The translations under genes were made by a program, and so were the position numbers. From assembly GCF_964204645.1 (NCBI RefSeq), contig NC_134025.1, positions 18,389,101-18,453,100 of the forward strand: a DNA stretch of 64,000 nucleotides, given 5' to 3'. Origin of the DNA: Tubulanus polymorphus. Its lineage: Eukaryota; Animalia; Nemertea. Under the pieces are notes generated by a model, which was not told the DNA's origin, searched no databases, and worked only from the letters and a program-made list of their open reading frames with translations. Positions 24,587 through 56,484 of the stretch are shown here, in pieces (positions within the stretch are counted from its first letter, which is position 1; each line of letters starts with the position of its first letter).

Positions 24587-25040
<454 letters not shown>

Positions 25041-25048
25041 AGTGAAAC

Positions 25049-31171: not shown

Positions 31172-31610
31172 ATTTGATTTCGGAAGTATCAGACTTACGA
31201 ACTTTCTTTTTGTATAGTAGTACACAGCTCGTTGACTTTCAAAGGCAGTAGAGTGAAGTAGAATCTGCCCTACATGCAACTGAAGCTGGTATATGACTTC
31301 TTGATCTTCTGTAGTGTATATTATACGTTTCGAATAGAGTTTTATGCCATCATTTTATCGCAGCAGCAACAAGTTGGTGCTGCCATCTATCCAATCACAT
31401 CGTGCCAATCACAGCGCTTCTCTAACCGACACGCGGCTTCCTTGGATTTCCCGTATTAGTCAAGCGAACGAGGAAGTATTTCGCAAGTTGATATATGACG
31501 TAATGCAAAAGCGCCAGTAATGATTGAAATCGCGCGTCTTGAGGCCAGGGGAGCTGGTGGTGGAAGCGTGTTCGGGAGTCACCGGACCCCTGGCAAGTGA
31601 GGATGGATGT

Positions 31611-31925
31611 TTTTCGATATTTAGATATTAACATGTTGTCCTGGTTTGAATTTTGGTTCACCAAGATCATGTGTTACAAACGCACCATACAAATTATTCC
31701 AAACAACTTCTGAATTATCTATTTTTAGCTTGTATAGGTTTCGTGCCAATACTTGAATGTTAAGAATTATTATAACCTTTAACTAAATCTTATACATCGC
31801 TTTATTTATTTGTTTCATTGGCAGTAAAATATTTCCACATTCTTGTTTTCAATGTTTTATAAAATCTTTCTATAATAGATGCTTTTTTATCTGGGTGCTA
31901 GAAAAATATTCTACACCATTATCAG
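31611..31925 (-). pseudogene. Polinton integrase fragment
   Basis: Matches 20270-20590 (KASIIERF..RMWKYFTANE..VWNNLYGAFVTHDLGEPKF). Confidence 0.8.
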
Positions 31926-32227
31926 GATCGCCAAATCTCATAATTCCCCGAATTTCATAAAAATTCGATTTCAAATTTGCCATTCCACATTAGTTTATCC
32001 CAAAAATTCTACATTTTTTTCGCAGGCGTCAAATAATTTATTGAAATTAAAAATCTTGTTATTTTAATTTTATTTTAATTAAATTATATGTTATATGTAT
32101 AAGATACATATCAATACGTATCTAATACGTATCTGATACAATAATACTTGAGACCCCATTTAATTAATTATTATTTATACAATATATTTTAGATTTCAAT
32201 ATATTTTTATGTGAATCATATTATTAT

Positions 32228-32948
32228 TTAACCACTAAATAATGACTCAGTATACGGTTCATTATTTGGATTATTGTTCCATTGCTCAATAAATTTCTTT
32301 ACTTTTTCTAACAGGTTTATATATAATTGTTGATCTAGTTTGTTAGATTTACTCATATTTTCTTTCTTTTCGAGAGGCCTTAAATTTTTCCAACTCCAAA
32401 TTAACTTCTTATTATATTCATCATTCATATTAGATTTAGATATTGGTAACACGGGGTCGATATGAAAGTTATTACCGTATTTTCTGTCATTCATTTTATC
32501 ATCGATCTGATATATATAATCCATGATTTTAAAAATTCATCTGAAAAACCAAATAAATTAGATAGTGTAGCTGAATGTTTATCTTTATTGAATAATTGTC
32601 TTAACCTAGATCTTAAACATTGTTTCAATTTAAAATTAAAATTTGATAATATTTGTTATTATATTCTGTATTATCCGCTCGCCATTGTTTTTGATACTCT
32701 CGTACATGATCACAATTATCATCTCTCCATTGTTCTAGATATTCTTGAAAATAATTCATATTATCTTTTCGATATTGTTTATTATGTACCTTTTTGCAAT
32801 TTTTTCAATAATATTGCTTGCCATCTTTTCTAATCTTATGTTTACCAAATTCTGTTAACGATTTACTTAATTCACATTTAGAACATATCTTATATATATT
32901 AACAACACTATGTGTAATATCAATAGTTTGTGATTGTTCTGCCTCCAT
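32228..32948 (-). pseudogene. HNH endonuclease, disrupted (relic B')
   Basis: HIDPVLPISK..WKNLRPLEKKENMSKSNK; start MEAEQSQTI directly after the pPolB stop. Confidence 0.8.
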
Positions 32949-32983
32949 TTATTATACAAATTTTTACTAAAATTAAGTCATAA

Positions 32984-35900
32984 TTATTTACATGATAGAA
33001 TTCTGTTCATTATCTCATTTTCTTTATCTTCTTCCTTTTTGAATTTTAAGTATTCATCTAAATTACAACCATACGCAACTGTGTGCATACCATCGTCTAA
33101 TATATACCTTTTATCATCGGAAGGGTTCAAACTAACATTTCCTATCTCTTCAATAAACAATTTGTGGTCCTCTGACCTTAGATATTTCATTTTATTTTTC
33201 CTAACTTCTTCATTAAATATACAATTGATATAATCTTTAAAATGAATATTTTTTCCACTACACTTTTGGTTATTCCATTTAACCTTTTAGCTTCAGGATC
33301 TTTAGTTTTATAACTATGCATCTTCGATCTAATACCTATGAACTCTGTCATTTCTTTTCCACCTAATTCATCTTTAAATTTACATGGAACTTTTTATATT
33401 ATCATTGTTTAACAATTCATGATTTTTAGGATAGTTGCTGAAATCAAAATGATCTTTTAATCTGTTTAAATCATCTGTTATGTTTTATCTTTAATACGTA
33501 AGGATCTGTATTTTTTATGATTAATGGGTGCCACAATTAAATGTACCATCTTCTGCTGTTAAATCATAAACATAGTCATTTGGATTGGATTTTTCAAATA
33601 TATCTCTAACTTCTTCTGTTAGTTAATTTTCTACATGCGTTGATTGAAATACATGTGGTATCATTTCTAATATAAACTACCATATCAAATCCTGATGAAT
33701 TGCATAATATATTAAATCCTGATATAGCACCTTTTCCTTTTTGTACCAAAGATATAGTTTTTGTTTTTGTATATTCTTTTGAACCATCTGCAGCATAGAA
33801 CCCAATTAAGAACCATTTTCTTAAAATTTATTTTGCATTTAATATATAATCTGGCACTATTGTTTCTTTGGTAGAAGTATTACTTTTAACTATTGCATGA
33901 ATATAGAATTCATCATTATATTTTAAAGCAAAATCTTTAGGATTATTTACATCTATTCCATAAACCTTTGTAAATTTCATAAAATCTATGATTCTAAAAA
34001 CTTTATGCGAATAAACTTCTTCACAGTTATTTTTAATTCTTTCTAATAATTTCAAATCTTGATTACATAAATACGACTAATATTTATTGCCTCCAACGTA
34101 TTTATAAACCCCGGCAGAACCATCACACATAAAAATCCTTTAATGAAATAGTTTTTCTTCTAATGTTTCTGGTTCTACGTTATAGATATTATTGATTATT
34201 TCATCAAATGACATATGATTCATTCTTTGAAAAAATCTCTTATGTAATAATTCATCCCCAATTTTTATATCAGTTGGTTTGATTTATATCACCATTTTTT
34301 TTATCAAACTATGATCTTCGGTAACATCTACGTACCCTAATTTAGTTCTAACTCTATAAATCTTTTTATTTGTTTTACGTATAATAATATTTTTTAATTT
34401 TGTCCATCCATTCTTTGTCCTAAAATCCATTAATTGTTTTCCATTTATTTGTATTAATTCCTTTTCACCATATGAAATATTAAGTTCATTTTGTTTACGT
34501 ATTATTGCGGAGAATCTTCTTATTAATATTTCTTTATTATATTTCAATAATATTGGGGTGTCTGCTGTTACAGAATCAAAATATAAGATTTTTATATGCT
34601 TTTCTCCAAAAAGTGGTTGTAAAACATTATAATAAAATTAATAAATTAATAATTTTGATATTTCTAAGACCGCTGTTCCGACATAAATTGATTTATTAGA
34701 ATTCATAGACGTTCTACGTAGTTTTACAGCAGCTAAAATTTTATCAAATATTCTGTTACCTATGAACTTAGGATATGATTGTAAATATCTTATTCTTTAA
34801 CCATTACTAACTAACTCAATATCATTTCAATTCCTAATATTTTCACACGTCTTACCATAGAATGCATTATTCATTATCTTGAAGAAATCTTTCTCAAAAT
34901 CAGTTTTTAGCTTTAGTTCATTGCGTAGTATAAAAATCTATATATTTTTGTAACCATTTAGATTGAATGACATATATTACATTATATGTACTTTTTAAGA
35001 TATCATTCCTTGTTGCATATTTTGTGTTAGTATTAATTTTTCTGTATTTTGGTAATTTGATAATTCTTCATGTGTAACAGTTTTATTTTCTGGACAGTAT
35101 GCTAGATTATTTGATTTAAATTTAATATGTTCAGGGTATTCTAAGTCCGCAACAAAGAAGTATCCAGGATCTGAATCATCTGCAATATCTAGAATTTGTT
35201 TCTTCCAATCAAATTTATCAACATTTTCATCTTGTAAAACTTCAGTTATTTCAAATACTTCATAAGGCTGTGGTTCCATCATTGCCCAACTATATAGATT
35301 ATTTGCATTTATACATAATAATTTGTAACAAGGATAATCATTTATATTAAAACAGCTATCACCTAATACACCTGAAACGCCTCCTCTTGTAGATTTTTCA
35401 AATAATAATAACTGATCTATATTTGTTAATAAATCCATTCTTATTCCTGTAAATTTTAACCCGCAGTCCCATCTTAAACCAGGACTTGAATAACAGTGGC
35501 AAGGATCGGTATTAAAATATTTTAGATTTTCATCTCTAAATCTTTCAAATATATCAGTTGATAATAATACATCTGATTTTAAATATAGTTCAAATAGTTC
35601 ACCATGATTTTTTATTTTAAAATGATACCATATTTTTATTGTTCTATTATATTCTTCATCTTTTACATATTCGAATCTTCATACATCCTAACATTGTTCC
35701 TTTGTAACCTCAGTTACATTAAAATCATTATGATTTTTATAAAAAGAATATGGTATGGCACCTTTATATCTTATTAATTGAAAATCATTATCTTTTGGAT
35801 AGTTTTGTTTCATAATTTGTATTTCGTCATCGATTATACTTTTGGATAAATTATCTAATGATCTATTTAAAAATCTATATGAGTCTATAAATCGTAAACA

Positions 35901-36166
35901 TCCAAATTGGAAAGATATATTGTTTTCAGATGTTTTAGCTAACATTTTTAATGTATAAGTTGGTATTTTTTTATTTTTATTTTTTGAATTTAATATTTCT
36001 ATTTCATTATTATAATTTCGTCTATTTTATGACATAGCCGTTTAATAGATAAATGAGCATCATACCCTAATAAATTATGAAATATAACTGGAACAAAATT
36101 AATTTTCTTAGCTTGCAAGTTACAATTCTCATGTGCTGCGCCTCTTAACTTTCCTTTCAAGTGATC
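32984..36166 (-). pseudogene. polB: Protein-primed PolB containing an intein, degenerate (relic B')
   Basis: RGAAHENCNLQAKK, FIDSYRFL, CINANNLYSWAM, KIMNNAFYGKT; YFD and TDP separated by 1065 bp. Confidence 0.9.
33510..34574 (-). mobile_element. Intein with LAGLIDADG homing endonuclease in pPolB motif C (degenerate)
   Basis: Block A SVTADTPILL; block B RVRTKLGYVDVTEDHSL; endonuclease motifs GFFMCDGSAG and WFLIGFYAADGSK; blocks F/G DYVYDLTAEDGTFNCG..PLIIKN followed by T. Confidence 0.9.
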
Positions 36167-36187
36167 AAATGATTCAAATTATTTTCA

Positions 36188-36670
36188 TCTATTATAATTT
36201 ATTCATGCATTATAAAGATTTATGGTTAACTAAAGAAAATAGAAATAATATGATATTTCAGGGTATTCAATCGGAAAACCATAATAAATTAAGATCAGGA
36301 GCTAATGACGCAATAGTAACTCGTACCACAGATAATTTGATTAAAAAGATTTATGGAAGCAAATATAAAATTCCATTAGACTTTGAATTGATAAATAACA
36401 ATGCACCTTTATATAAATACGCAATTCAAGAAGATATCATATTCGAGATAACATTTGCTCCTGTAAATGAAATTGTATTATCTAGCGTTGTTAAAGATAT
36501 GAGTTATAAATTATCGAATATATGTTTAGAATATGATACAGTAACTGATGAAAATATTTCAAGTATAATTCAAACTCAATACAATCAAGGATTTTCATTA
36601 TTATATGATTATATTGATAAATTTAAAACTGTAACTATTAATGCAAATGATGAAATTATTAATGAGAATA
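36188..36670 (+). pseudogene. Major capsid protein internal fragment (copy B)
   Basis: YNLFMHYKDLWLTKENRNN..INANDEIINEN matches the middle of 16622-17868. Confidence 0.85.
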
Positions 36671-36671
36671 C

Positions 36672-36987
36672 CGAATATGTCTATAACATTCAGTATCCAG
36701 AAATATCCTTTGTTGTATTCTTCTAAGTTCTTCATGTCAATTAAATCAGCTTGCCATTGTTGATCAATATATGAAACCATAACCTTTCTTGTTAAATAAG
36801 TTTTATCCATTTTCTTGTGGATATGATATGTTGGTTGATTTTGTAACCATGATTTCAATTCACTATATTTTATATTACCATTTTCCTTATCAGATTTAAT
36901 TTTACCCCATAATTCTGTAACGTTAGAATATGATACTTCACTTTCTGGGTTATAATATAAATCTCTTAAATATTGTTCTTTTTTCAT
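36672..36987 (-). pseudogene. Integrase N-terminal fragment (copy B)
   Basis: MKKEQYLRDLYYNPES..WQADLIDM..LNVIDIF, then truncated. Confidence 0.85.
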
Positions 36988-37338
36988 CTTATTTTAATCC
37001 ATTAATAATAATTTAGATTTAGTTTCAATGACTTTATGATTTGACTTATTTTCTGGTATGATAGGTTTATTGTCATTGGAATCATCTTTATCATCAGATT
37101 TGAATTTTGATTTATATATTACACCGGATAATATAATAATTGTGATTAACCCAATTGTAATATATAAGTAATTATTTCTTCCACTATTAGAAGAATCAGA
37201 TGGATTATCATTCGAATCAATATCAGATAATTTCTGTGATTCATTTATATCAGTTAATTTCTTTTTCTTAGCTTTTTTTAATTCTGAAGATCTTTTACCT
37301 AATTCTCTTGCCCATTTAATTTCTTTTTCTTAACTCCA

Positions 37339-37935
37339 TCACTCATTTATTTTAGTTAATTTTTGTTCTGATTCATTTTCTGTTTCGACGTTTGGTTGTA
37401 GTACATCTGTTTCGTTCTTACCTGATTTATATTCCATAGGTTTGATATTCGAAAATGTTATGACACCAGTAGGAATTAATGTCATAACCGATCCTAATTG
37501 AAATGAAGCATAACCAACCCATTTTTGTAATTCAGTCATAACTAAGTAGTCATTTTTCAAATCACTATATAATTTATTTTCATCATTAATTGGTATTAAC
37601 TGGTTACATAACTTAGAATAACATTTGACAATACCATCTGAAATATAATCATTTATTCTAGCTAATCTAGCTTCTTCATAAATCTTAAAATATTTTATTA
37701 CTTTATCCGGTTTCATAGAGTCTAGTTCTTGAAAAGTAATGATTCTATTTAAAAACTCATTAGTTTTTCCACCGGCAATCAATAGTTCTAGATGATGCTT
37801 ACAATATAAATAGTATTCATAATCAATATTACAATTAACTTGAGCACAATTAGTTACAACTGTATCTTTATTATCACTTATACCCAAATCATCTAATGTC
37901 TTTTCAATATCAATACTATTCTTACTCGATTTCAA
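37339..37935 (-). pseudogene. MSKKSS-family protein, start lost (copy B)
   Basis: Homologous to 21425-22033. Confidence 0.72.
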
Positions 37936-38214
37936 AAAAAATATTATAAGTATTATAAAATGATACTAGTATCTCTTTAGATTAATACTAGATAGTTAAA
38001 GGTAAAGAATTTTAGTATTAGTTATTGTTTTTTTAGTATTTTTTATTTGTGATATAAAGTATTCTTTTTTGAAAAGAAAATATTAAAAAATATAATAGAA
38101 TTCACAAGCTAGTTGAAGTTATTGTTTTTTAAATACTTTTTATTTAAAATCTATTTGATATCTCACTACTTTTGTTTATCTATTAGGAGCAGTAATTATA
38201 ACTGTCCAGATAAG

Positions 38215-38889
38215 TCATTTCGGATCCTTGATATCAAATTCCTCAACGTATTGTTCATTATTTGGATTATTGTTCCATTGATCAATAAATTTCTTTGCCT
38301 TTGTTAACTGTTCTAAATATAACTTTAAATCTAGTTTATTAGATTTAATTATGTTTTCCTTCTTTTCTAAAGGTCTTAAATTCTTCCAATTCCAAATAAG
38401 TTTTTTATTGTATTCATCATTCATGTTAAATTTAGATATTGGTAACACGTGATCAATATGGTAATAATCCCCATAATTATCTATATTCATTTTATCATCG
38501 AATTGAAATATAATCCATGATTTGAGAAATTCATCTGAACAACCCAATAAATTAGATAGTGTTTCTGAATGTGTTTCTTTGTTGAATAATTGTGTTAATC
38601 TAGATCTTAAGCATTGTTTCAATCTAAAATTAAGATCTGTTTGATATCTTTCTCTCATATATTCTGCCATATAATAATTATAATGTTCTATATTATCTTC
38701 TCGATATTGTTTAGTATATAGTTTAGTGCAAGTTTTACAGCAATATTGAAAACCATCTTTGCTAATCTTACGCTTACTAAATTCTGTTAATGATTTATCT
38801 AATTCACACTTAGAACACTTCTTGTAATATATATTTATAACACCAGTGTTATTTGTAATATTGATAATTTGTGGCTGTTCTGGTTCCAT
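38215..38889 (-). CDS. HNH endonuclease, intact (copy B)
   Basis: KKCSKC..CKTC; [27 protein letters not shown]. Confidence 0.85.
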   Translation of the reverse strand: MEPEQPQIINITNNTGVINIYYKKCSKCELDKSLTEFSKRKISKDGFQYCCKTCTKLYTKQYREDNIEHYNYYMAEYMRERYQTDLNFRLKQCLRSRLTQLFNKETHSETLSNLLGCSDEFLKSWIIFQFDDKMNIDNYGDYYHIDHVLPISKFNMNDEYNKKLIWNWKNLRPLEKKENIIKSNKLDLKLYLEQLTKAKKFIDQWNNNPNNEQYVEEFDIKDPK

Positions 38890-39021
38890 TTATTATATGT
38901 ATTTTTTACTAAATTGGTTAATATTTTAGAATCCTCTTCCATTTCTTCGACCAACGTCATCCTTTTTCATTCCTCGCTGCTTTTGATAAGTTGTTTCGAT
39001 TCCTTGATATCTAAATCATAC

Positions 39022-39345
39022 CACTGAGCAAACCGCGCATTCGTGCGCGCTTTTGATCAATGCGCATGCGCTAATCATAATTATATATAATTATGTAAAT
39101 AGAAACAACCGACATGAAATATCTAAACGCGTTCGCATTAGGCAAACCGCGCATTCATGCGCGCTTTTGCTTAATGCGCATGCGTTAATCATAATTATAT
39201 ATTCATTATGTAAATAGAAACGACCGAACATGAAATATCTGAATCATACAACTGAGCAAACCGCGCATTCGTGCGCGGTTTTGCTCAATGCGCATGCGCT
39301 AATCCTAATTATATATTCATTCTGAATAGAAACGACCGAACATAA
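39022..39345. repeat. Three-copy ~115-bp array of hairpin units (copy B)
   Basis: gcaaaccgcgcattcgtgcgcg(c/g)ttttg..aatgcgcatgcgctaatcataattatat. Confidence 0.85.
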
Positions 39346-40133
39346 AAATTCACCAAACAGATTTACACAATACATTATACAAGTTGTTCGGCCGTTTCTT
39401 CCAATACATCATTCGATTTCTATAAATACAATTTATAATTACAAACATTTTTTCAATTGCTGGTTAATATTTAACTACATCAACAAATGTTAAACTTAAT
39501 CATTGGAGTCTTAATGTTTTTGAAATTCTTATATAGTTTCTTCGTCGATCTTTTGGCGATTCTTGTGTTTCTTGTGCTAATTTCTATTGGTTCGATGTCC
39601 ATTGCTGTTGATTCCTCAGTCAGAAAGAGTATCTTGAGTTTCTCTATCACTTCTTGATGCGTATGGCGTTTTATTAATCTAAAAGATATTAGCGGTAACT
39701 CTAGCTATCTAAAAGATATACTTAATACACTTAAATATATCTAAAGGTTTCATATTTAATAGCCTCAATAACTACAAAAAACAGTACTTACATTTAGATT
39801 TAGAATTGTAAACTATAAACTCCTAATTTCGTTTCGAGAGATAGAATATCCTGAGCACAATGTTACAGCGTATGTTCATTTCCGGGGCGATTTCTAGAAT
39901 GACACGTCGTTGATTATGCCACGTCATGTGGTTCCGGCGCGCCTTTTCTAGAATATTCTACACGTTTCTGATTATGACGTGTCATCTCTATTCAGAGTTC
40001 CAGCACACCTTTCTAGAATTTTCTCTGCACGTTTGTAATAATGAGTCATAAGTCTCGGCGTCATAGTAACAGCTGTAACAGCTGTGAATTTATAGATTTA
40101 TTCCATAGCTCTTTACATTGAATGTATATAGGT

Positions 40134-40385
40134 TCAAATAGAATCATGTTCTAGTATAAACATCGGATCCTTGATATCAAATTCCTCAACGTATTGTTCA
40201 TTATTTGGATCATTATTCCATAATTCAATAAATTTCTTTGCCTTTGTTAACTGTTCTGAATATAACTGTAAATATTCAAGTTTCAATTTATTCTCTAAAT
40301 GTGTTTTAGATTTATTGTGTCTTGCTTTTTGGGATTTATCTACATTGATATTACATGTTGGACAGTAGTACTTATTTGCTTCCAT
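40134..40385 (-). CDS. Chimeric ORF: pPolB N-terminal zinc finger fused to HNH C-terminal tail
   Basis: MEANKYYCPTCNINVDKSQKARHNKSKTHLENKLKLEY matches the start of 45746; LQLYSEQLTKAKKFI..EEFDIKDP matches the end of 38215-38889. Confidence 0.6.
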   Translation of the reverse strand: MEANKYYCPTCNINVDKSQKARHNKSKTHLENKLKLEYLQLYSEQLTKAKKFIELWNNDPNNEQYVEEFDIKDPMFILEHDSI

Positions 40386-40465
40386 TTTAATACTAAATTT
40401 TTTATTAAAATTGATTTTAGAAGTTCAATGATTTAAATGTTATTCATTTATATGAATATTTTAAG

Positions 40466-40869
40466 AGTAATAGGGGTAATGGGCTTTCATATTAAAGGTT
40501 GAATGGTCGAGTTCATTAAAAACAAATATTAAAAGTAATTTAAAACGATAATATATTTTCATAACCGTGTGTATTTCAGTTGAATAATAGAATAATTATT
40601 ATTATTTGAATATATTTGATTATATGAATTTGTGTATTGTAAATAAATCAATTGGTCGCGGAGCGGAGCGGTAGCGAAGTGGAGCGACCAATTGATTTAA
40701 TACAATATGCTTTTTAAATTATTGATATCTTAGAATAAATATTTAGTTTTAATATAAAATGCACACGGTTATGAAAATATATTATAGTTTTTAATTACTT
40801 TTAATGTTTTGTTTTTTAATGAGCTCGACCGTTCGACCTTTGGTATGAAAGCCCATTACCCCTATTACT
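40466..40869. repeat. Terminal fold-back palindrome of copy B (404 bp)
   Basis: agtaataggggtaatgggctttcata at 40466 and its reverse complement ending at 40869; apex aaatcaattggtcgc-ggagcggagcggtagcgaagtgga-gcgaccaattgattt. Confidence 0.92.
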
Positions 40870-41901
40870 GACAAGGATATATCGCTGTTAATTCGATAAA
40901 AGACATCTGTTTTATTTTAATATTTGAAATGATCTTGATTTGTTCCATCAAGAACTCATTCTTATTCTGATGAGTTGACGTTAAACAGAGATAAGGACAT
41001 ATCTCTGTTAATTCGACAAAAGACATCTGTTTAATTGAAATATTTGAAAACATACATTATGCAAATTTCTAGTTCGCCAATAAAGCACTATTATCAATAT
41101 TGCTATAAATTAATAACTGATGGAATCACAAGCAATGAATCCCTTCAGGTCACATGTATGTAAAGTGTCAGAAAACCCGTTATTGCTGCTTTACGGCAAT
41201 ATTTTTGCAGTCGAACTTGTTTACGTCTCAGTTGCAGCGGGGCAGGGCGCTCATTATATTGCTCACTTAAATCACTTGCACATCAGCCCAATGTTTTTCA
41301 GTGTGTAAACTCCATCGTATTCGATTGGTATACAGGGACATTGAGGAATTGAATTTTAGGCACCAGAGCCCTCAACTTGATTCGAGCAAAAGACCTTAAC
41401 TGACTTCACAGAATTTGATGAATTCCGAATTTGATTATGAGTCTAGGATTTTCTAAATTGCTGAATGCTTTCTGCTCTGGTTTTAAGATCAATTCAAATT
41501 CAATCTTGAATACACAAAAGTGAGTCAATTATATATATTCATTTTATTGAAAGAAATTCTACTGAACACAGATTTTGAAATGGATGATATGTTTGTTGAT
41601 TTATCCAGGCGAAATAATTACAGCAAAATCAACTGACGATCAACAAGGTGAACTTTTCATTTATCTCCGGATAATTTGTCTACCCCTGATGATACAAGTA
41701 TTTTGGCTACACCTTTTGAAACCTCAACGCTTTATCTAATCGCGCCAATTAGTCAGCCACAGTCGATTTTCATGCCATCTGACCTCTTTCCACCTGTAAT
41801 TAAGCAATCAAATGAAAGAATTACTCAGTTATGTAATATAATAGAGAAGTGCAAGAAAATATAAATGATATCTTTGGAGACCAATTTAAATCATAATATT
41901 G

Positions 41902-42235
41902 ATGTACGAGTGTACGAATTGGAAGAATGGTACGAATGGTACGAGTGTACGAATGGTACGAGTGTAATAATATATATATATATGTTACTTTTAACATACT
42001 AATGGGAAGAATAGTACGAGTATAAATATAATATTTGTATTCTATTTTGAATATAATATTTGTATTCTATATTAAATATAACATTTTAAATACAGCATAA
42101 AATTGATAAAATAACTTCAAATCAAACTCGTACTGTTTTTTAAATAAGAAACATATATAAATTATATATGTTACACTCGTACACTCGTACCATTCTTCCA
42201 CTTCTTCCAATTCGTACACTCGTACCATTCTTCTA
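41902..42235. repeat. Inverted repeat of (GTACGAGT/GGTACGAAT) arrays, positional equivalent of 18997-19328
   Basis: gtacgagtgtacgaattggaagaatggtacgaatggtacgagtgta versus tacactcgtacactcgtaccattcttcca. Confidence 0.8.
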
Positions 42236-44945: not shown

Positions 44946-45035
44946 ATTTCATATTATCTAATTCTTGATATGTTAAAATTTTACTTAGGAATTCTTTGCA
45001 TTTACCACTAGCAATTAGTTACTCAAGTTGATGTT

Positions 45036-45702
45036 AGTAATAGGGGTTTAGTTGGTTCAGGCCAAAGGTCGAACGGTCGAGCTCATTAAAAAACAAATAT
45101 TAAAAGTAATTTAAAACTATAATATATTTTCATAGCCGTGTGTATTTTATATTATAACTAAATATTTATTCTAAGATATTAATAATTTAAATTTTAAAAG
45201 CATATTTAAAAGCATAAAAGCATATTTTAAAAGCATAAAAGCATATTTCAGCATAAAAGCATAAAAGCATATTGGTCGCTCCGCTTCGCTACCGCTCCGC
45301 TCCGCGACCAATTGATTTATTTACAATACACAAATTCATATAATCAAATATATTCAAATAATAATAATTATTCTATTATTTAACTAAAATACACACGGCT
45401 ATGAAAATATATTATAGTTTTAAATTACTTTTAATATTTGTTTTTAATGAACTCGACCATTCAACCTTTAACCTGAACCAACTAAACCCCTATTACTCTT
45501 AAAATATTTATATATATATATGTATAACATATAAATTGATAGATTATTCAATATAAAAGTAACGAGTAATTAACGAGCTCTTATAGAATAGATAGATAGA
45601 TATATTTTAAACATTATTTCAATATTTATATTTGTATGAGTTAGATTTTTAAACATTAAAAGTGTTAGTAAAGTGTGATTGAAATAATACATATTTAAAT
45701 CA
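45036..45702 (+). repeat. Left TIR of copy C, with terminal palindrome 45036-45497
   Basis: Reverse complement of 62491-63071; 45036-45148 also recurs inverted at ~45385-45497; (AAAAGCAT)n expansion at ~45196-45272. Confidence 0.93.
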
Positions 45703-45720
45703 TTGAACTTCTAAAATCAA

Positions 45721-45748
45721 TTTTAATAAAAAATTTAGTATTAAAATG
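45721..45748 (+). promoter_or_regulatory. A-run + TAAA(A)TG start motif (replication-gene class; pPolB example)
   Basis: ttttaataaaaaatttagtatTAAAATG; the same TTTA(A/G)TAAAAA-N8-10-TAAA(A)TG pattern precedes 5743, 49827, 17918, 56485 and the HNH genes. Confidence 0.6.
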
Positions 45749-48700
45749 GAAGCAAATAAGTACTACTGTCCAACATGTAATATCAATTTAGATAAATCCC
45801 AAAAATCAAGACACAATAACACTAAAACACATTTAGAGAATAAATTGAAATTAGAATATAAAGATGATATATTAGAAACTAAATTAGAAGAATTAAAGAA
45901 TGAAAAAGAAACCTACAAATGTGATACAAATGTGATACATCATTCATTCAGTGATAAAAGATATTATAAAGAACATTTAAAATCTAAAAGTCATATTGGA
46001 AATATGAATAATGATATTTTAGGTGAGGATTATTTTGATAATGACAATGATAAGAAACATAAGACAATTAAAAGAATAAGAAATAAATTAAACAATAAAA
46101 GACCATACATGGAAGATGTAAGAAATTATATTAATTCATTAGATAATAAAAAAGATATAGAGATGACCGAAGCATTTAAAAGTGATATTGGTCCAGCAGC
46201 TATTGAGTTTAAATTTCATAAAGGAAAAACATTAGAAGAAAATAAAAAACATTTAGAAAATATGAAAAATATTATAAAAATAATTACTGTTATGTTGAAT
46301 ACCCTAAAATTAGTATATCTTCTAAAGTAAAGTTTATAAAATCTGAAGATAAACTAATATATAATATAAATTCTCATTCACAACATATTATATCTAAACA
46401 ACATATAGATGAAAAATTAGATAAATGTTATAATGAAGTAAAAACTAAAATAGAAGAGAAATATTTTGAAGGATCTGGTTTAATATTTGATGAAATAATA
46501 TTTATGACTTTACATGTTTATAACACAAAATATAATAAGTTAACTAAATCGAAACCAATAGATGAAAATAATGTATCATATGATAAAGAACCAGATATTG
46601 AAGCGTCGAGTTATATCAAATTACCATTTAAAAACTAATGCTGTTATAAATGTACAAAATGAAGATGATAAATGTTTTCTATGGGCAATAATTAGTTGTT
46701 TACACCCAGTTGAAGATTATAATAAACATACTTATAGATTAACTCATTATAAACCATTTGAAAATAATTATAAGATAGATAATTATCCTGTTAGAATTAA
46801 AAATATCCCAAAAATAAAAAGAGATAATAATCTAAGAATAAATGTATTTGATTTAATCAAATTGCCAAATACAAAAGGTAACAATATAAAACATTATACA
46901 TTAGAACCTTTATATCTATCAAAAGATTATGATTCAAACGATGTTATAGATACATTATATTATGAGAATCATTATATGTGGATTAAACAAATCGATTTAT
47001 TTTTAAATCAGAAAATGATTTTGATAATAAAATATATATATGTAGAAAATGTTTACATAAATTCAGAACTGAAAGTGCATTATTAAATCATAAACAATTA
47101 TGTGAAAATCATGATTATTGTAAATTAGTTTTACCAAATGAAAAGGATAAAATATTAGAATTCACAAAATATGATTACAAAAATAAAGTACCATTTGTTA
47201 TATATGGAGATTTTGATTCATTAAATAAAGAACTAACTGATCAAGATAGAAAAGAAATATATTATAAAAGAAAGAAATCAAATTCTAATGAAAATGATTT
47301 TTCAGATGAACCACCAAAAACAAATACAATTAAAAACATTCATCAATCAGCTGCTGCTTTCGGGTTATATATAAAATCTGATTATCCAGAACAAATTGAA
47401 AGTGAATATTATGATTACAGAAATGAAAATGTTATCAATCATTTTTGTGACTTATTAATTGAATATGAAATAAGATTTAGTAAATTATTGAATATAAATA
47501 TAGAAATTATAATGACAGAAGAAGATAAAGAAGCATTTGAGTTTGCAGATAAATGTTATTATTGTGAAAAGATATTTAATTATAAAGATAAAAAAGTAAG
47601 AGACCATGATCATTTGAATGGAAAGTTTAGAGGTGCCGCACATGAGAATTGTAACTTACAAGCTAAGAAAATTAACTTTGTTCCAGTTATATTTCATAAT
47701 CTATCAGGATATGATGCACATTTATTCATCAAACAGTTATGCCATAAAATAGAAGAAATTAATAATGAAATAGAAAGATTGAATTCAAATAGATCAAAAG
47801 ATAAAATACCAACTTATAAATTTAAAATGTTAGCTAGAACATCTGAGAATTATATATCATTCCAATTTGGTTGCCTAAGATTTATAGATTCATATAGATT
47901 TTTAGGTAGTTCATTAGATAACTTATCAAAATCATTAGTTGATGATGAATTAAAAATATTAAAACAACACTATCCAAATAATGATGATTTTAAATTAATG
48001 AGATATAAAGGCGCAATTCCATATTCTTTCTATAAAAATCATAATGATTTCAATATAACTGAATTATTAAAAGAACAATTCTATGATGAATTAAAAAATG
48101 AATATGTTAAAGATGAAGTATATAATAGAACATTGAATATTTGGAATCATTTCAAAATAGGAAATCATGGACAATTAGTAGATTCATATCTAAAATCAGA
48201 TGTATTATTATAAACTGATATATTCGAAAGGTTTAGAGATGTAAACCTAAAATATTTTAACATTGATCCATGTCATTGTTATTCTAGTCCAGGTTTAACA
48301 TGGGATTGTGGATTAAAATTTACAGATATAAAAATGGATTTGTTAACAAATATAGATCAATTACTATCATTTGAAAAATCTATAAGAGGAGGAGTTTCGG
48401 GTGTATTAGGGGATAGATATTTCAATGTAAATGATAACCCTGGATATAAATTATTATATATAGATGCAAATAATCTTTATGGTTGGGCAATGATGGAACC
48501 AAAACCTTATGGAGTATTTGAAATAAGTGAAGTTTTACAACATGAAAATAATGACAAATTTGATTGGAAGAAAAGAATTCTAGATATTGCAGATGATTCA
48601 GATACTGGTTACTTTTTTGTTGTAGATTTAGAATATCCTGAACATATTAAATTTAAATCTAGAAATCTAGCATACTGTCCCGAACATAAAACTGTAACTC

Positions 48701-49797
48701 ATGAAGAATTATCAAATTATCAAAAAAGAATTAAACCTGAAAATCATATTCATACAGAAAAGTTAATGGTAACTCAGGAAGATAAATATAATTATGTAGT
48801 ACATTATAGAATGTTGAAGTTTTATTTGAATCAAGGAATGATTCTAAAAAAAGTACATAGATATATTTCATTTAGCCAATCTAAGTGGTTAGAAAAATAT
48901 ATAGATTTTAACACCAAACAGAGAACTGAAGCTAAAACTGATTTCGAGAAAGATTTCTTCAAGTTAATGAACAATGCATTCTGTGGTAAGACTTGTGAAA
49001 ATATTACAAACAGAAATGATATTGAGTTAGTTAGTAATGGCAAAAGGATAAGGCATTTACAAACATATCCTAAATTTATAGGTAACAGAATATTTGATGA
49101 AAATTTAGCTGCAGTTAAAATGAGAAGAACATCAATGAAATTTAATAAACCAATCTATGTTGGTGCTTCAGTTTTAGAAATCTCAAAGCTATTAATGTAT
49201 GAATTCTATTATAATGTATTACAACCTCATTTTGGAGAAAAGCATATAGAAATCTTATATTTTGATACTGACAGTTACATATTAAAGATAAAAACTAATA
49301 ACATAACTGATGATTTAAAAACATTAAAACATCATTTTGATTTCAGTAACTATCCTAAAGATCATGAATTGTTTAGCAATGATAATGAAAAAGTTCCTGG
49401 TAAATTCAAAGATGAATTAGGTGGTGAAGAAATGATTGAATTCATTGGTATTAGATCTAAAATGTATTCATATAAAACTAAAGAACATGAAGCTAAAAAG
49501 TTAAAAGGAATAACCAAAAGTGCAGTAGAAAAGAATATTCATTTCAAAGATTATATCAATTGTATATTCAAAGAAGAAGTTAGAAAACATAAAATGAGAT
49601 GTTTAAGATCTGAAGATCATGAAATGTTTATTGAAGAGATAGAGAAGATAAGTCTAAACCCATTTAATGATAAAAGATATATTCTGGATGATGGAATTCG
49701 TACAGTTGCTTATGGTTGTAATTTAGATGAATACTTAAAATTTAAAAGAGAAGAAACAAAAGAGAACGAGATAATGAAAAGAATTCTAACGTGTTAA
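45746..49797 (+). pseudogene. polB: Full-length protein-primed PolB (ZnF, putative terminal protein, vOTU-like, exonuclease with endonuclease VII insert, polymerase), several frameshifts/stops
   Basis: YYCPTC..H..H; NEDDKCFLWAI..HYMWIK; IYGDFDS; CYYC..VRDHDHLNGKFRGAAHENCN; FHNLSGYDAH; YIDANNLYG, KLMNNAFCGK, YFDTDS. Confidence 0.94.
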
Positions 49798-49826
49798 TCA
49801 AATTTTAATAAAAATATGTATTATAA

Positions 49827-50180
49827 ATGGAGAGTAAACAAGCACACAGTGAGAACAACAAATTATTTCCAGATAGAATAAAAGATACTTCAAATGTCAA
49901 ATCAGTAGATTATAAATTTAAGAAGTTAAAAGAATTAATAATCCATAAGAAATATCTAATTACAAATATTGATACAGTTACTAACAAATATGGAGATAAA
50001 TTAGTTATACACTTAGAATATGAAGGATTAAAAGGAAATACATATAAATTCAGAACATATTTACCAGATAGATTTCGTAGATTATCAAGTGAAGATCTAG
50101 AAGAATTATGTTCTGGAGATTTCTATTTCGTATACAAAGGTAAGAATGAAAAAGGGCATCATGAAATAGATTTCGAATAA
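49827..50180 (+). CDS. Conserved 117-aa protein (copy C)
   Basis: Near-identical to 5743-6096. Confidence 0.7.
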   Translation: MESKQAHSENNKLFPDRIKDTSNVKSVDYKFKKLKELIIHKKYLITNIDTVTNKYGDKLVIHLEYEGLKGNTYKFRTYLPDRFRRLSSEDLEELCSGDFYFVYKGKNEKGHHEIDFE

Positions 50181-50197
50181 GAAAATATGTAAAATAA

Positions 50198-50959
50198 ATG
50201 GTAGAATTAAAAGAATACAGAATATTTGTTGATTCTAGAAGACTTACAAATTATAAATCACATAATTTACTAGTACAATTAGATAGAGAATTTAAGAATT
50301 GTGTTGATTTAAAATAAGTAAATATAAGTTTACGTAATTCTTTTTATAATATAACGAATAAAACTATTGAACATAGAGCCTTTTTAATTTTTGATAAAGG
50401 TAAAAATGAATGGTCTTATATATATCTAAAACCGGGGTTATATAATTTAGATACATTTGCACAAGAAATTAATAGAAAAGCCTGGCACAAATTAGGTAGT
50501 AGTTCTGGGTTTAGTATTAGATTTTTAAAAAGTGATAGTTCTGATAGAATAAAGATAAGGTTGTCTAATAGTGAAAAACATAAATTTATGGTAAAAAAAC
50601 CTAGAGCTAAACTGTTAGGAATTCTTCCAGATAGATCTTTTAAAAATATTGATGCTGTTACACCAAACTTAATACCTTACACACATTTTTTTATTTATTG
50701 CAATTTAATCGATCCTACAAAAAAATTCGAAGCAACTAAAGATATAACTTGTAATTCTGGTTTACTAAACATTTTACCATTGAAGAATGTTAAAGAATTT
50801 GGAACGCAAATAAATTATAATTTAACAGAATGTGATTTCAAACCATGCATTCCTCGTTTTAATAATTTTAGATTAGAAATTAGAAATCATAATGGATACT
50901 TAATTGATTTAAATAATTTCCCTGTAATTTATGAATTAGTTATAAGATGTAAAAAGTAA
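50198..50959 (+). pseudogene. Penton/minor capsid protein, frameshifted (copy C)
   Basis: HFFIYCNLI..FRLEIRNHNGYLIDLNNFPVIYELVI. Confidence 0.72.
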
Positions 50960-50976
50960 TTTTTTTCACTATACAA

Positions 50977-51318
50977 ATGAATTATACTGTTGGACCGAGT
51001 ATATGTTTTGGGTTTGATTTTAAACATGGTAAAGAAATGAGAATTAAACTAAATGATGTAATTACTGATATAAAATGTAAATCATTTAACAATGCATCAA
51101 TGATTAATAAAGAAAATTGTAATATAGAAAAAGTAATTGATTTAATTAAATCACCTTTAGAATATTATGAATTAAATGAAGATGGAATTATTGATGATAT
51201 TAAAAACATATTAACCAAAATATATGATAATCATAAAAGTAGTAATGAAATAAATGTTGAATTAATCATAAATAAGTTAACTAAATATTTTGAAGATAGT
51301 AATTTTTTTGATAAATAA
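50977..51318 (+). CDS. Hypothetical protein (113 aa)
   Basis: Homolog of 6882-7238. Confidence 0.68.
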   Translation: MNYTVGPSICFGFDFKHGKEMRIKLNDVITDIKCKSFNNASMINKENCNIEKVIDLIKSPLEYYELNEDGIIDDIKNILTKIYDNHKSSNEINVELIINKLTKYFEDSNFFDK

Positions 51319-51540
51319 ATGAGTGATAATAAGTGGATAATAACTGAATTATATAATGGCGCATTACTATCAGTTGGAACTGTTGGTTATTCAATGGTAT
51401 TGAAAAAAGTATTTAAAATGGGAAGTGTTAATGTTGATAGATTTGATATTAATGATATTTTAAAATTAACATTAGCAGTTACTTTATCTAATTTAACTAT
51501 TGATTATTTGGAAAAACAAAAATATATTCCTCCTATATAA
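51319..51540 (+). CDS. Small hydrophobic protein (73 aa)
   Basis: Homolog of 7239-7460. Confidence 0.75.
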   Translation: MSDNKWIITELYNGALLSVGTVGYSMVLKKVFKMGSVNVDRFDINDILKLTLAVTLSNLTIDYLEKQKYIPPI

Positions 51541-51564
51541 ATGCATAATTATTTTACTAAATAA

Positions 51565-51985
51565 ATGGCTTCTGCAGTTATAACTATTATAGGATCGGCA
51601 ATTGTTAACGCTTTAGCATTTACTGGTGGTGGATATTTATTTAAGCATATTGATAAAAATGGATCATTAACAGAACAAAAAAGACATAATTTAGCATTAG
51701 AAAAATATAATAAAGAAGCGGAAGAATATAGAGAAAAGAGGCAAAACTATATGGATTATATTAACAAGGAATTATATGATCAGAAGATTTCACATAGAGA
51801 TTTTCAATCAGTTGATGATGCAATGAGTTTATATAACGGTAACAAATAAAGAAAAATTACATCTATACAAACCTAAATTATCAGATTATTATACCCCAAG
51901 TAATGAACAGAAGAAATATGAAATAATATGGATTTTAGGCGGAACAGTTATTGTTATATTTGTAGCGTATAGATGTACTAATTAG
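51565..51985 (+). pseudogene. MASA-type membrane protein, frameshifted
   Basis: Homolog of 7486-7908 with a frameshift near 51838. Confidence 0.72.
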
Positions 51986-52006
51986 TAATTTTTTTTTGCT
52001 AAATAA

Positions 52007-52424
52007 ATGGATGATAATATTGATATTATTCCTCATGATATAAATAAAACTATATTAAAAACATATTTAGAAAAACAAATATTATAATTTGAAAGTGACT
52101 TAAAGATAAAAAAGAAAGAATATTTAAAAAATAAAAATTATATATTATCTTATTATTAGTGGTTCAGTTACAATTAGTTCTGTAATAACATTTTTAGCAA
52201 TATTCAGTCCATTAACACCTTTAGCTATATCAATTGGCGTATTAGGATTAAGTTCAAGTGTTTTAACTGGTATAAGTTCAAAATTAAATATAAAAAGTAA
52301 TAAAGAAAAAATTAAAACTAATATAAAAGAAATTAAAAAATACACTAGATTATATAATAAGTTTAAATGGCCATATAACAGTTGAAGAACAAGATAAATT
52401 ATTAAAAGAACTAGTTAATTATTA
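52007..52424 (+). pseudogene. Two-TM membrane protein, frameshifted
   Basis: Homolog of 7927-8359. Confidence 0.62.
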
Positions 52425-52441
52425 ATTCTTTAATTATATAA

Positions 52442-53763
52442 ATGGTAGATAGTTTTCCAAAAGCTTTCCAATATAATAAATCAATTAAATATAATATTCC
52501 TGCAATAGATTTTAATAAAGATATTTCATATAGAAATGAAGTTTTAAATTCAGTAATTGATTTATATATTTATGTCACTGAAAGTAATAATTTTCATGTA
52601 AAGATGTAAAATATATTTCATGTGTATACAATTAATTTTAAAAATTTAAATGAGGCAAAACAATGGTTATTAAAATCTAATATGAAGTATTGGCAGAACC
52701 AATTAAATTATGCTGTTTATTGTGCAACAACAGGATGTGGAATTAGTTGGAATGATCATTTAAACAAACCAAGTTTACCATTGATGTTATCACTTTTTAG
52801 ATTTCATACTTATTTTCAAATAGAATTAATATTAGATGAATTAGAATGTCCTTTACCAGGTTCAAAATATTTTAAAGAATTGAATAATAAAATTAATTTT
52901 TCTAAGTTTTATAAAATATGTAATGAATTTAATATTAATTCAAATAAAGATTTTAGAGCAAAAATTGGAACAATGGGTGGATTAGGAATATTATATACTA
53001 AAGAATTTGGAAAAATAATGACAAATTCAGATATAAGAACACTAAATTGGAATGAATTACCAAAATATTATAATAATATACAACAACAAAACAATAATGG
53101 TTGGGTTTATTTCATTTTAGAAAATAGTGAAGGTTTTACTAAAGCTGGAATACAAAGAATAAATCAATCTATTAGAAATTATTTGATATGTATTTTAGGT
53201 GCGCAAGTTGAAACAAGATCACCAATAGTTGGAAATGATAACACTTCATTCGATGCGCAGAAACAATTCAAAGTATTATTTGAAGATTCCATTCATAATG
53301 ATAAAAATAGATCGATTCCAGAAAACATTGTAAGATATCAAAATTATTTAGATAAATAACATATTAGATTAAATTATTGTATAGGCCCTAATCTATTAAT
53401 TATTTCTAATGATTTAGTATTAAAGATGGGAAATATAATTGGTTATAATAATCTAATTAAAACTGCGACAATAAATAATTCATTTTGATTGAATGATATT
53501 AATAAAAAAGATAATTACTGCTCCAAAATTAATGGAAGGTGAAAAAAATAAAAAAACACATTCAATCAACTGAAACTAAAAATATTAAATTGGATAATGA
53601 TTCTAAAATAAAAGATTACAATACATCAGAAAATATTAAAACTGATAATATTCAACATGATATAATTAAAACTAATGATGATAATAAATCCCATGAAAAT
53701 ACTAAATTTGCTTTAACTTGTATAGGAATTGTAATCGGAGGAATATTATATTTTAAATTTTAA
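52442..53763 (+). pseudogene. YWQNQLN/CATTGCG protein with C-terminal TM, several stops
   Basis: Homolog of 8376-9687. Confidence 0.72.
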
Positions 53764-53779
53764 TTTTTTTATTATATAA

Positions 53780-55189
53780 ATGGATGTAGAAGGTGGAGAA
53801 GATATTGGAATGGAAGGCACGGGAAATAATAATGAAGGATATATTGATGATGATTATAATGATGCTGAAACTAATATTGATGATAATTCATCAGCGCGTA
53901 ATTCTAATTTAGCAGAGAGTGGTTCTAATGCCCCATCAACAGATGAATTTGATAGAACTAGATCGAGAATAAATCCTGAAAATGAAAATCAAGGTTTATT
54001 AAAGCAAAATTTAGAATATAATGAATATATTTATAATTTCAAACATGTATTTGAAAAATCTGGATATAATATCAATGATAGAGGCGCCAGACAAAATTTT
54101 TTAGACGGTGAATATTATTATAAATTGAAAGATGATTATTATATTGATATCTCTTATAAAAAACAAGAAGAAATATTAGCAGAATCAACTTTGCTTAAGT
54201 TAGACCTATCTAGAATTAAAAGAATAAGAAATAGTGATGAAATAGAAGATGTAACACAAGAAGAAATTATTAAAAATGAATGAGTATTTGAACAAAGAAT
54301 TAATAAATTATTTGAAACAATCGATAATAATTTAGAACCAAAAACAACTTCTGGTAAACTTAAATCAAATAAAGTTCCAATTGAAAAACTTTTACCAAAT
54401 GGATTACTTGATGCAACAGATCAAGAATTAGAAGATTTAGATATATTTTCTGATAAAGCAATTAGAGAAATTATTAGTATAAGACTTGCATCTGATAAAA
54501 TTGCACATGATAAAAGTATAAGAGATTTTAAAATTAGAACTTTGGAAAAAGAATTAACTAATGCAAATAAAGAAATAGAACAACTAAAGTCTGATTAAGA
54601 TCATCAAGTAATTGATGAAATAGAATATAGGCAAAAAGAATTACGTTTAGAAAAAGAAATTAATAATTTAAAAGATAATTTAGAAGTACAGAAAGAAGAA
54701 ATTAAATTATTATTAAAATCACATGATTATAATATTAATAGATTAAAAGGTATTTTTAAAGATTTGTTGATAAAACCAAATTCTGAAATATCATTGAAAG
54801 ATAGTATAAAATTATTATTTAAATTAGAAGGAATAACAATTTTTTCAATTCTAACAGCTGTAACTATGTTATTTACAACAATTGGTTAAGCAATATCAAA
54901 TTCTTTGAAATCTACTCCTACTCCCAATAAACCGGATAAACCCCCAGATAATAATAATTCTATACAAGATAAAGTTAAAGATGGTTTAAAGAAATTAGCA
55001 AAATATTTATGGGAGCTATCAAAAAAATCTGCTGCAGCACTGCCCGGAGTTATTGCATCAATTATTGGTTTTATATTGAAATCTGCTGGGAATATTATTA
55101 ACCTTGCTGCTGAACATATTATTTTATTTTTAATTACAGTTGTAAGTGCTATTATTTTTGGGTTAGTAAACATGATAAAAAATAAATAA
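53780..55189 (+). pseudogene. Acidic/coiled-coil/multi-TM protein, several stops
   Basis: Uninterrupted homolog of 9688-16601. Confidence 0.75.
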
Positions 55190-55209
55190 TTAATTTTTTT
55201 GTTAAATAA

Positions 55210-56452
55210 ATGAGTGGGAGTTATATCAATCCTTCTAAGAATCATAGAATATCTAATGCTATTAAAGCAGAAAGATCACATCATATAATTACTCATAACC
55301 CTTCTAATATAAATCCTGATGAAACTTTATATGTTAGAATCCCTAGATTAACACAAAATACTTTTTATGTTCCAAATAGTATTTATTTATCAGCCGATAT
55401 AAAAGTAATCGGTAATAATAATAATTATGTTGTCGATAATGTTGGGAGGTATTTGATTAAAAAATTAACAATAAAGATTGGTCCAGAAACAGTTTTCTCA
55501 TTAGATGATTATAATTTATTTATGCATTATAATGATTTATGGTTAACTAAAGAAAATAGAAATAATATGATATTTCAAGGCATCCAATCAGAAAACCAAA
55601 ATAAATTAAGATCAGAAGCTAATAGCGCAATATTAACTAATGCTATAGATAAATTGATAAAAAGTATATATGGAAGCAAATATAAAATTCCATTAGACTT
55701 TGAATTGATAAATAATAATGCGCCTTTATATAAATACGCAATTCAAGAAGATGTTATATTCGAAATAACATTTGCTCCTGTAAATGAAATTGTAATATCT
55801 AGCGTTAATAAAGATGTGGGTTATAAATTATCGAATATATGTTTAGAATATGATACAGTAACTGATGAAAATATTTCAAGTATAATTCAAACTCAATACA
55901 ATCAAGGATTTTCATTATTATATGATTATAATGATAAATTTAAAACCGTAACTATCAATGCAAATGATGAAATAATTAATGAGAATATTAACTTCCCAAG
56001 AAGATCTATTAAAGGTATATTAATATTTTTTACCATTGCAACATATACTAATGGTGCAATAAATGTTGATAATTATTATAATCCTGAAATAACAAAAGTA
56101 GAAATAACTATCGAAGGAATAGCAAATAAAATATTTTGTCAAGGAATGAGAATGATTGATCAATGGCCAGAAATTAGAAAACATTTTATGAATGAAAAAG
56201 TAAAATCATCTGAAAATTGTAATATTAATCAAATTGATTATTATACCGGTAATAAATATGCATTATGGTTAGATTTTAGAACAACAGAGGATAATTCATT
56301 ACATGGTTCTGGAAAAAAACTACAGAACACTAAAGATGGAATACAATTATTCATGACAAAGAATAAAGGAATCAAAAATTTCAAAATGCACATTTATATC
56401 TGACGCGCAATTAGATATTGTAAATTCTCAATTAAATAGTGTTATGTATTAG
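55210..56452 (+). CDS. Major capsid protein (copy C), frameshift in the last ~17 codons
   Basis: 397-aa ORF 55210-56403, near-identical to copy A MCP. Confidence 0.82.
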
Positions 56453-56484
56453 AATTTTAACTTTAATAAAAATTTATATAATAA

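Follow-up and report, generated by a model that had tools for sequence, protein, structure and literature searches.

The window analysed here, a 64,000-nucleotide stretch of Tubulanus polymorphus DNA, contains Polintons whose ends are long fold-back palindromes, raising the question of whether such ends prime replication, protect the element, or are by-products of copying. Three decayed Polinton copies lie amid pieces of non-LTR retrotransposons, namely element A (about 3716-25082), element B (about 31600-40869), and element C (45036-63071, 18.0 kb), the last of which is complete in outline, with polymerase, ATPase, integrase, and probable capsid genes, several of them broken. C is bounded by terminal inverted repeats (TIRs) of ~580–670 nt with 97–99% identity, the left repeat (45036-45703, forward strand) consisting of the palindrome plus ~200 nt, and the right repeat lying on the reverse strand at 62490-63071. 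Copies of a 6 bp target-site duplication flank the element on the forward strand (45030-45035 and 63072-63077, matching at 5 of 6 positions), and the tips of C read AGT...ACT, with the initial AGT close to the (AGT)2 motif given in the consulted part of PMC8097293.

The packaging ATPase of C is A32-like (57530-58141, reverse strand; Pox_A32, E = 4e-13), and the broken rve integrase gene (58170-59232, reverse strand) has an open copy in element A at 19966-21057, with a Pfam rve match at E = 2e-9. The probable major capsid protein (55210-56403, forward strand) shows a weak match to Capsid_N (E = 0.008, below the cut-off), and a stand-alone ORF at 60447-61115 (reverse strand) is endonuclease VII/HNH-like (PHROG 1035, E = 1e-15), with no match to an Ulp1-like maturation protease among the ORFs scanned, which comprised part of the frames. 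By most of the features tested, the window element is a Polinton. Further copies of the endonuclease VII/HNH-like ORF were seen near 23858-24526, 32229-32971, and 38215-38889, and at 4079-4849 of L007, a metagenome relative with 79% DNA identity to C and an open frame of 1305 residues; the ORF lies near the right end in the window elements, and directly behind the polymerase in L007. Tandem units of 114–126 bp with short GC-rich palindromes are present at 39007-39347 and 61253-61666, ~0.8–1.5 kb inside the right end, and a 120-bp tandem repeat adjoins the end of element B (40873-41000 of the window), where reads jump back by 120.

The three intact ends, that of B and both of C, are palindromes of 380–462 nt, with the coordinates and the ~110 nt arms given in an earlier note on this DNA confirmed here. 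At end B (40466-40869), where the forward strand is the 3′-ended strand, the inner arm (~40466-40577) and outer arm (~40756-40869) enclose an apex (40644-40699, forward strand) formed by a 16-bp stem round a purine-rich loop and holding two GCGNAGC mini-hairpin words. The left end of C (45036-45497, reverse strand 3′-ended) has its outer arm at ~45036-45147 and its inner arm at ~45386-45497, with an 8-mer expansion (45195-45271) and an apex with four GCGNAGC words (45278-45305) in the interior, and the right end of C (62692-63071, forward strand) has lost its apex by deletion. The earlier note, which described the three intact ends, missed a fourth, truncated end in element A (24944-25082, forward strand), with a divergent inner arm and a different apex (25062-25082), cut at 25083. 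Every intact end follows the same layout of outer arm, apex, and inner arm in one fixed orientation, with the arms, ~110 nt in length, almost fully paired, the AT-rich middle poorly paired, and a GC-rich apex present in B and C-left.

Folding of both strands favours the 3′-ended strand at each end, by 9–12 kcal/mol in prediction. For end B, the predicted fold of this strand has an energy of −119.2 kcal/mol (z = −24, with 0 of 100 shuffles as stable) compared with −108.3 kcal/mol for the opposite strand, and at the two ends of C the 3′-ended strand is predicted to be more stable by 9 and 12 kcal/mol. In the predicted fold of end B the 3′ terminus pairs flush, as the earlier note had claimed, whilst the central ~180 nt pair poorly in the centroid structures. 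The local fold (−112/−113 kcal/mol) is ~12 kcal/mol weaker than the panhandle (−124/−127 kcal/mol), as calculated with 112-nt arms. Six of the nine GCGNAGC words in the window sit in the apices of B and C-left, with 2.5 expected in the whole window, and the words are absent from the apex of element A. This motif is known from single-strand origins, with a related form binding SSB poorly according to the passages of PMC13037366 that were available; the complement of GCGGAGC is equally stable (PMC5449611, in the extract used) and the apex of A lacks the words, so GCGNAGC marks the strand only weakly.

A separate, internal fold-back of ~320 nt was seen just past the ATPase stop codon (18998-19319 and 41904-42225), with predicted energies of −68 and −75 kcal/mol. 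Its arms are formed of 8–9-nt tandem repeats that differ between copies yet are mirrored. Palindromes occupy the same place in three relatives (L005 3033-3105, L006 3504-3695, and L008 9082-9359), whilst element C has direct repeats at this position instead. The internal fold-back may act as a terminator in both directions or as a further single-strand signal.

The mismatches within the terminal arms are strand-polarised. Over alignment columns 1–112, the arms contain 100 Watson-Crick and 7 G.T pairs in B, 106 and 5 in C-left, and 104 and 6 in C-right, with no C.A pair in any intact end, confirming the claim of the earlier note that G.T wobbles lie on the 3′-ended strand. Reading the arms from the tips, an outer C has become an inner T at 7 of 15 sites in B, 5 of 13 in C-left, and 4 of 12 in C-right, compared with an outer G becoming an inner A at 0 of 19, 0 of 22, and 0 of 22 sites respectively (Fisher p = 0.0012, 0.004, and 0.011, which count as one test as the three ends share ancestry). 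The result is weaker, at only p = 0.03–0.07 per end, when wobbles are counted against C.A in a plain sign test. Since an outer C faces an inner T, the G.T pairs fall on the 3′-ended strand. Four arm differences had been described as shared by all three ends; the four are indeed kept in C-right, but B and C-left share five, at positions 27, 28, 35, 39, and 47 from the terminus (p27 and so forth), and B has two more at inner-arm positions 62 and 107. The earlier note suggested that shared descent plus CpG decay could explain two of the four positions; only two of the seven wobble sites in B are CpG, and with the other five at non-CpG sites, CpG decay alone is ruled out as the source of the wobbles.

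The claim that both arms change together between copies is borne out by the comparison of B with C, in which 10 differences are mirrored in both arms, one is confined to the inner arm, and four to the outer arm, the count skipping two positions where the C ends disagree. Under independent arms the hypergeometric probability of this mirroring is 3e-10, an optimistic value given that 9 of the 10 differences fall in one block. A B/C difference at position 99, cited in the earlier note, is real between these copies, but is a minor variant family-wide, in under 20% of reads.

Raw Illumina reads of the same species (run X4, from a study different from that of runs X1-X3) extend these observations to the family. 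With ~12% of X4 mapped, 9355 reads were placed on end B, only 69 of which fitted two places equally, and depth is unbroken through both arms and the apex. The Logan contigs of runs X1-X3 are fragmented, and none spans the stretch. The continuous depth, and the presence of only 5–8 strand-switch reads per joint, rule out an assembly artefact, a possibility that the earlier note had raised and that these short reads refute. At the terminus (40869/40870), 1909 + 407 loose-ended reads run on into unrelated sequence with an agreement of 0.34–0.35, indicating many insertion sites.

The read differences mirror one another in the two arms. Differences present in at least 20% of reads number 43, of which 40 are listed, the rest being one G>A, one T>A, and one T>G. 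By frequency, five widespread variants recur in both arms: p11 (670/1944 inner reads, 34%; 1078/3506 outer reads, 31%), p16 (727/1909, 38%; 1395/3647, 38%), p25 (1165/1842, 63%; 1647/4304, 38%), p26 (1236/1838, 67%; 1762/4313, 41%), and p103 (287/1154, 25%; 463/1738, 27%). At three positions that are mismatched or wobbled in B, pairing is restored by variants in the reads: at p76 by an inner (265/1075, 25%) or an outer change (1070/1802, 59%), at p107 likewise (316/1156, 27%, or 711/1718, 41%), and at p62 by a variant in 601/2173 reads. The inner variants at p42, p55, and p60 have no listed partner, and a second outer variant at p25 is also unexplained. As the X4 tables are unphased, covariation of the arms across the family is deduced from matching frequencies, with phasing seen only in B against C.

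The strand bias holds in this larger sample. Inner T-to-C changes are found in under 20% of reads at p27, 35, 39, and 47, with all seven T>C differences listed, and outer G-to-A changes stay below that share at no fewer than three of the four positions p28, 35, 39, and 47, with seven of the eight G>A differences listed. More than 80% of reads retain the wobble asymmetry at p35, 39, and 47 (one of the eight G>A differences being unlisted), and it is partly lost at p27, repaired in 1053/4377 outer reads (24%), and at p28, repaired in 603/1858 inner reads (32%).

The reads also bear on orientation. A flipped end would place the T-type arm beside host DNA, so loose ends would be expected at 40466; none occur at this inner boundary among the six loose-end classes listed (249 reads or more each), compared with 2316 at the tip. 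Across the tip, depth falls from 3760 to 4, as opposed to a step of only 2146 to 2273 at the inner boundary. Counted by loose ends, the flipped form thus makes up less than about 10%; the share of outer-type letters at the inner boundary puts it below 20%, and only one orientation is seen among the reads, which derive mostly from integrated copies. Free mini-elements of 400 bp are rare or not seen, with no loose ends at the inner boundary among the classes listed. Depth at the inner boundary is ~60% of that at the outer tip, so that a lack of the inner arm in most copies, which the earlier note had held would refute its reading, is not observed; the remaining ~40% may represent divergent or truncated ends.

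Symmetric resolution of the AAV or poxvirus type is expected to yield flip and flop forms at 1:1, and the fixed orientation removes models of this kind. In poxviruses and N15, a resolvase acts on a palindromic junction to produce covalently closed hairpin telomeres. One model of this type has the palindromes of the integrated duplex extruding as cruciforms and an endonuclease VII-like nuclease of the element cutting them, so that a hairpin-capped element is set free much as in poxvirus telomere resolution. The long palindromes are flush with both junctions and the element has two endonuclease VII-like domains, a putative nuclease, as this would require; however, the poorly paired central ~180 nt would hinder extrusion, both strands fold in a cruciform and a wobble bias on one strand is not predicted, and the flip and flop forms that symmetric resolution predicts are not seen. 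We consider cruciform excision highly improbable.

The 400-nt form represents about one third of the terminal depth (1100–1450 against 3760–4620), and other forms are discernible. The inner arm of element A is identical to that of B at 46 of 57 positions over positions 1–57, and at 33 of 66 columns thereafter. In the read joint 40510>40825, the read letters match the apex of A (25062-25082) and continue as its reverse complement; this joint is exactly symmetric, from p45 to p45, and represents a short form round the apex of A in 21 reads. A group of loose ends at 40813 (771 reads) resembles, by eye, the complement of the A inner arm, and may consist of misplaced inner arms. The palindrome architecture thus seems to outlast sequence, apparently being kept by a subfamily with a different arm and apex. 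The apex is often deleted or expanded, as seen in C-right, C-left, and the read joints. Outside this genome, ~89 related loci from viral records, metagenomes (the best 80 of 167), and genome contigs, found with the polymerase, integrase, and terminal-protein region, included none that extended as far as a terminus or showed a terminal palindrome of this kind, and a search with the terminal DNA pattern gave one match, attributable to chance. One related locus (L060) carries a 393-nt inverted repeat (12074-12444 and 14212-14604, 91% alike, ~1.8 kb between) beside a distant integrase homologue, and Polinton-like polymerase and integrase sequences in bacteria-labelled records (L088-L090, proteins P0039 and P0124) are probably contamination of assembled genomes.

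These data also bear on a neutral origin, in which an old template-switch duplication without function has arms that are patchily homogenised when single-stranded, with the C-to-T differences frozen and amplified with the family. The mirrored arms of the second, internal fold-back, the two CpG wobble sites, the partial conversion of p27 and p28, and the frequent deletion or expansion of the apex are all compatible with such an origin, and the relevant section of a preprint on virophage and Polinton-like palindromes (bioRxiv 10.64898/2026.07.28.741278) names chance annealing where one strand is broken as another possibility. Against this, all seven C/T differences in B share the same polarity, five of them at non-CpG sites, the asymmetry at p35, 39, and 47 persists whilst flanking sites are homogenised, and the architecture apparently survives in the subfamily whose arm and apex differ in sequence. 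Neutral copying is, in our judgement, unlikely.

Whether the ends prime replication depends in part on the replication proteins. The broken polymerase gene of C, on the forward strand, retains a terminal-protein (TP) piece, D1 (46246-46638, 68% identical to L007), with the serine codon of a Gly-Ser-Gly loop at the priming position (46474-46476), a vOTU protease piece (46562-47086, 75% identical to L007, with the Cys and His of L007 both present), and the exonuclease and polymerase pieces of the protein-primed family B polymerase, pPolB (46987-49797), with a stop at 48211-48213 and an endonuclease VII-like insertion. Residues 75–365 of L007 were modelled from a 9-row alignment (pLDDT 69). In this model D1 comprises four strands and two helices and matches the little finger of Y-polymerases (Z = 9.0, RMSD 2.8 over 105 aligned residues), the following domain has an OTU fold (Z = 7.6, RMSD 3.2 over 96 aligned residues), and the serine lies beside glycines between helix 2 and strand 4. 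A Foldseek search returned nothing at E ≤ 0.001, though each of the 39 matches listed was a Y-family polymerase, and a PDB sequence search with the polymerase returned zinc fingers only. The same anatomy, including the serine beside glycines, is described for TP-vOTU polymerases in the portion of PMC11161782 consulted. The Pfam search gave no direct PF03175 match on the polymerase pieces of the window; among the 120 best relatives, PF03175 was found in 33 and PF02945, corresponding to the endonuclease VII-like insertion, in 26, an insertion that the same portion of PMC11161782 reads as a homing-endonuclease insertion in Polinton polymerases. No Rep/HUH domain was matched by Pfam in the 25 and 9 translations scanned. 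Since a TP domain with a serine at the priming position and an OTU-type protease are kept, protein priming is, on the strength of these models, not abandoned by this Polinton.

This weighs on self-priming, in which the flush 3′ end would prime the second strand, giving a hairpin-closed duplex or head-to-head dimer, with a nick in one arm, chosen by the wobbles, resolving it and keeping orientation, and protein priming occurring only at the open end. In minute virus of mice, the left-end hairpin is resolved by such a one-arm nick and keeps a single orientation. The predicted position of the 3′ end, flush and next to template, the wobbles marking the 3′-ended strand, and the two endonuclease VII/HNH-like candidates encoded are in keeping with this model, which is also drawn for virophage/Polinton-like palindromes in the section of bioRxiv 10.64898/2026.07.28.741278 that treats them. 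Moreover, some parvovirus termini with a mismatch bubble occur in one form (PMC8242256, in the text consulted), so that a flip-only state is compatible with self-priming. Nonetheless, no joint from tip to inner boundary occurs among the 15 joints listed (down to 4 reads, mostly integrated copies being sampled), outer-type letters at the inner boundary stay under 20%, TP and vOTU are kept with no Rep/HUH match in the translations scanned, Polinton polymerases commonly carry the endonuclease VII insertion (26 of the 120 best relatives), and, in that section of the preprint, the palindromes go preferentially with non-pPolB elements. We regard self-priming as doubtful. A hybrid cycle, in which protein priming is kept, the flush 3′ hairpin primes the second strand, and an endonuclease VII-like nuclease resolves one arm selected by the G.T sites, is likewise an improbable outcome; if true, it would place the logic of the parvovirus left end in a protein-primed, capsid-encoding eukaryotic element.

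The reading that we prefer, to which we assign roughly an even chance, is that the palindrome lets the 3′ single strand fold back into a metastable cap, which also serves as a template for repair and is opened out when protein-primed synthesis begins. The palindromes, forming the outer 380–460 bases of the TIRs, would serve as a temporary cap whilst the 3′ strand is single-stranded, the 3′-ended strand being predicted to fold with its 3′ end flush and paired. A TP-primed polymerase is predicted to unroll this cap and start copying at the true tip. The ~90-nt AT-rich middle is poorly paired, which makes cruciform extrusion from duplex unlikely and suggests a single-stranded stage; as the wobbles favour one strand only and the loose middle hinders cruciforms, the fold would most plausibly arise on a single-stranded 3′ end, at excision or strand displacement. 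Being ~12 kcal/mol weaker than the panhandle, it would form quickly and stay displaceable.

The fold may further shield the 3′ end, with a nibbled end refilled on the inner arm, and such refilling would account for positions 1–26 being perfectly matched and co-changing. Patchy template-switch correction would explain the mirrored changes further in. We infer that the outer arm is constrained in sequence, as origin and integrase end, whereas pairing is the only demand on the inner arm, so that C-to-T changes would be tolerated because G.T pairs remain. These changes may even be kept, in that they would prevent the inner arm from being taken for a true end and leave the cap less stable than a perfect duplex. 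Protein priming at the tip would copy the outer arm first, giving the same orientation in every cycle. Several points stand against cap and repair: formation and use of the fold are predictions from sequence; refilling past p27 would erase the asymmetry, so that the mirrored changes at p76–107 need a second process; the internal fold-back also has mirrored arms, and arm copying may be a general by-product; and the bias could also be produced by C-to-T mutation that favours one strand of an inner arm free of constraint. The earlier note had proposed hairpin-primed replication or end protection in this family. The conserved, strand-polarised fold-back stands, with protection as the best reading, whereas hairpin-primed replication is less likely, TP and vOTU being kept and a 1:1 flip/flop ratio absent.

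Polinton excision and replication are so far described by a model, to which a single-stranded stage is central, and the preprint (bioRxiv 10.64898/2026.07.28.741278) still calls for experiments. Co-varying arms with G.T-only mismatches would be a sequence record of the 3′-ended strand folding as single-stranded DNA, and a natural end offers a small substrate on which cap and repair, self-priming, and neutral copying predict different results.

The TP-bearing telomeres of Streptomyces offer a precedent for the preferred cap-and-repair reading, with 3′ fold-back, GNA loops, and repair of truncated ends on the fold-back followed by protein priming, as described in the portion of PMC5449611 consulted. 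They differ in having several short palindromes in ~180 nt, Tap/Tpg proteins, and an internal origin (same portion of PMC5449611), and the likeness is drawn as an analogy, with no homology claimed. Parvovirus terminal hairpins share the flush 3′ fold-back, conserved mismatches, and, at some ends, one orientation (PMC8242256, in the text consulted); in contrast, both ends of this Polinton carry the same palindrome, and it encodes TP-pPolB and an integrase, with no Rep/HUH nickase found in the translations scanned. Closest in position are the endogenous virophages and Polinton-like viruses of Halocafeteria seosinensis, whose palindromes lie, as here, at the TIR extremities beside the target duplication, and for whose ends section 7 of bioRxiv 10.64898/2026.07.28.741278 puts forward hairpin priming as a hypothesis. 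The example given there is a 52-nt palindrome from a protist, and such palindromes go preferentially with non-pPolB replication genes, compared with ~400 nt and a TP-bearing pPolB here, and that section contains no analysis of wobble bias, orientation, or covariation. Hairpin priming has thus already been proposed for virophage and Polinton-like ends, whilst strand-biased wobbles and fixed orientation were not found in print: the literature searched, which lay largely outside subscription journals and repeat databases and did not include the founding report of 2006, gave no description of a TP-pPolB Polinton whose long fold-back tips have wobbles on one strand and a fixed orientation, and the words ‘hairpin’ and ‘palindrom’ do not occur in the text obtained of the vertebrate Polinton survey PMC8097293. 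With the Polintons/Mavericks described in the consulted parts of PMC8097293 and PMC11161782, the element shares its 18.0-kb size, within the 15–25 kb of the group, long TIRs, 6-bp duplication, AGT...ACT tips, TP-vOTU-exonuclease-polymerase gene, rve integrase, A32 ATPase, and probable capsid protein; it differs from them in that each TIR ends in a 380–460-nt fold-back with fixed, one-sided G.T pairs.
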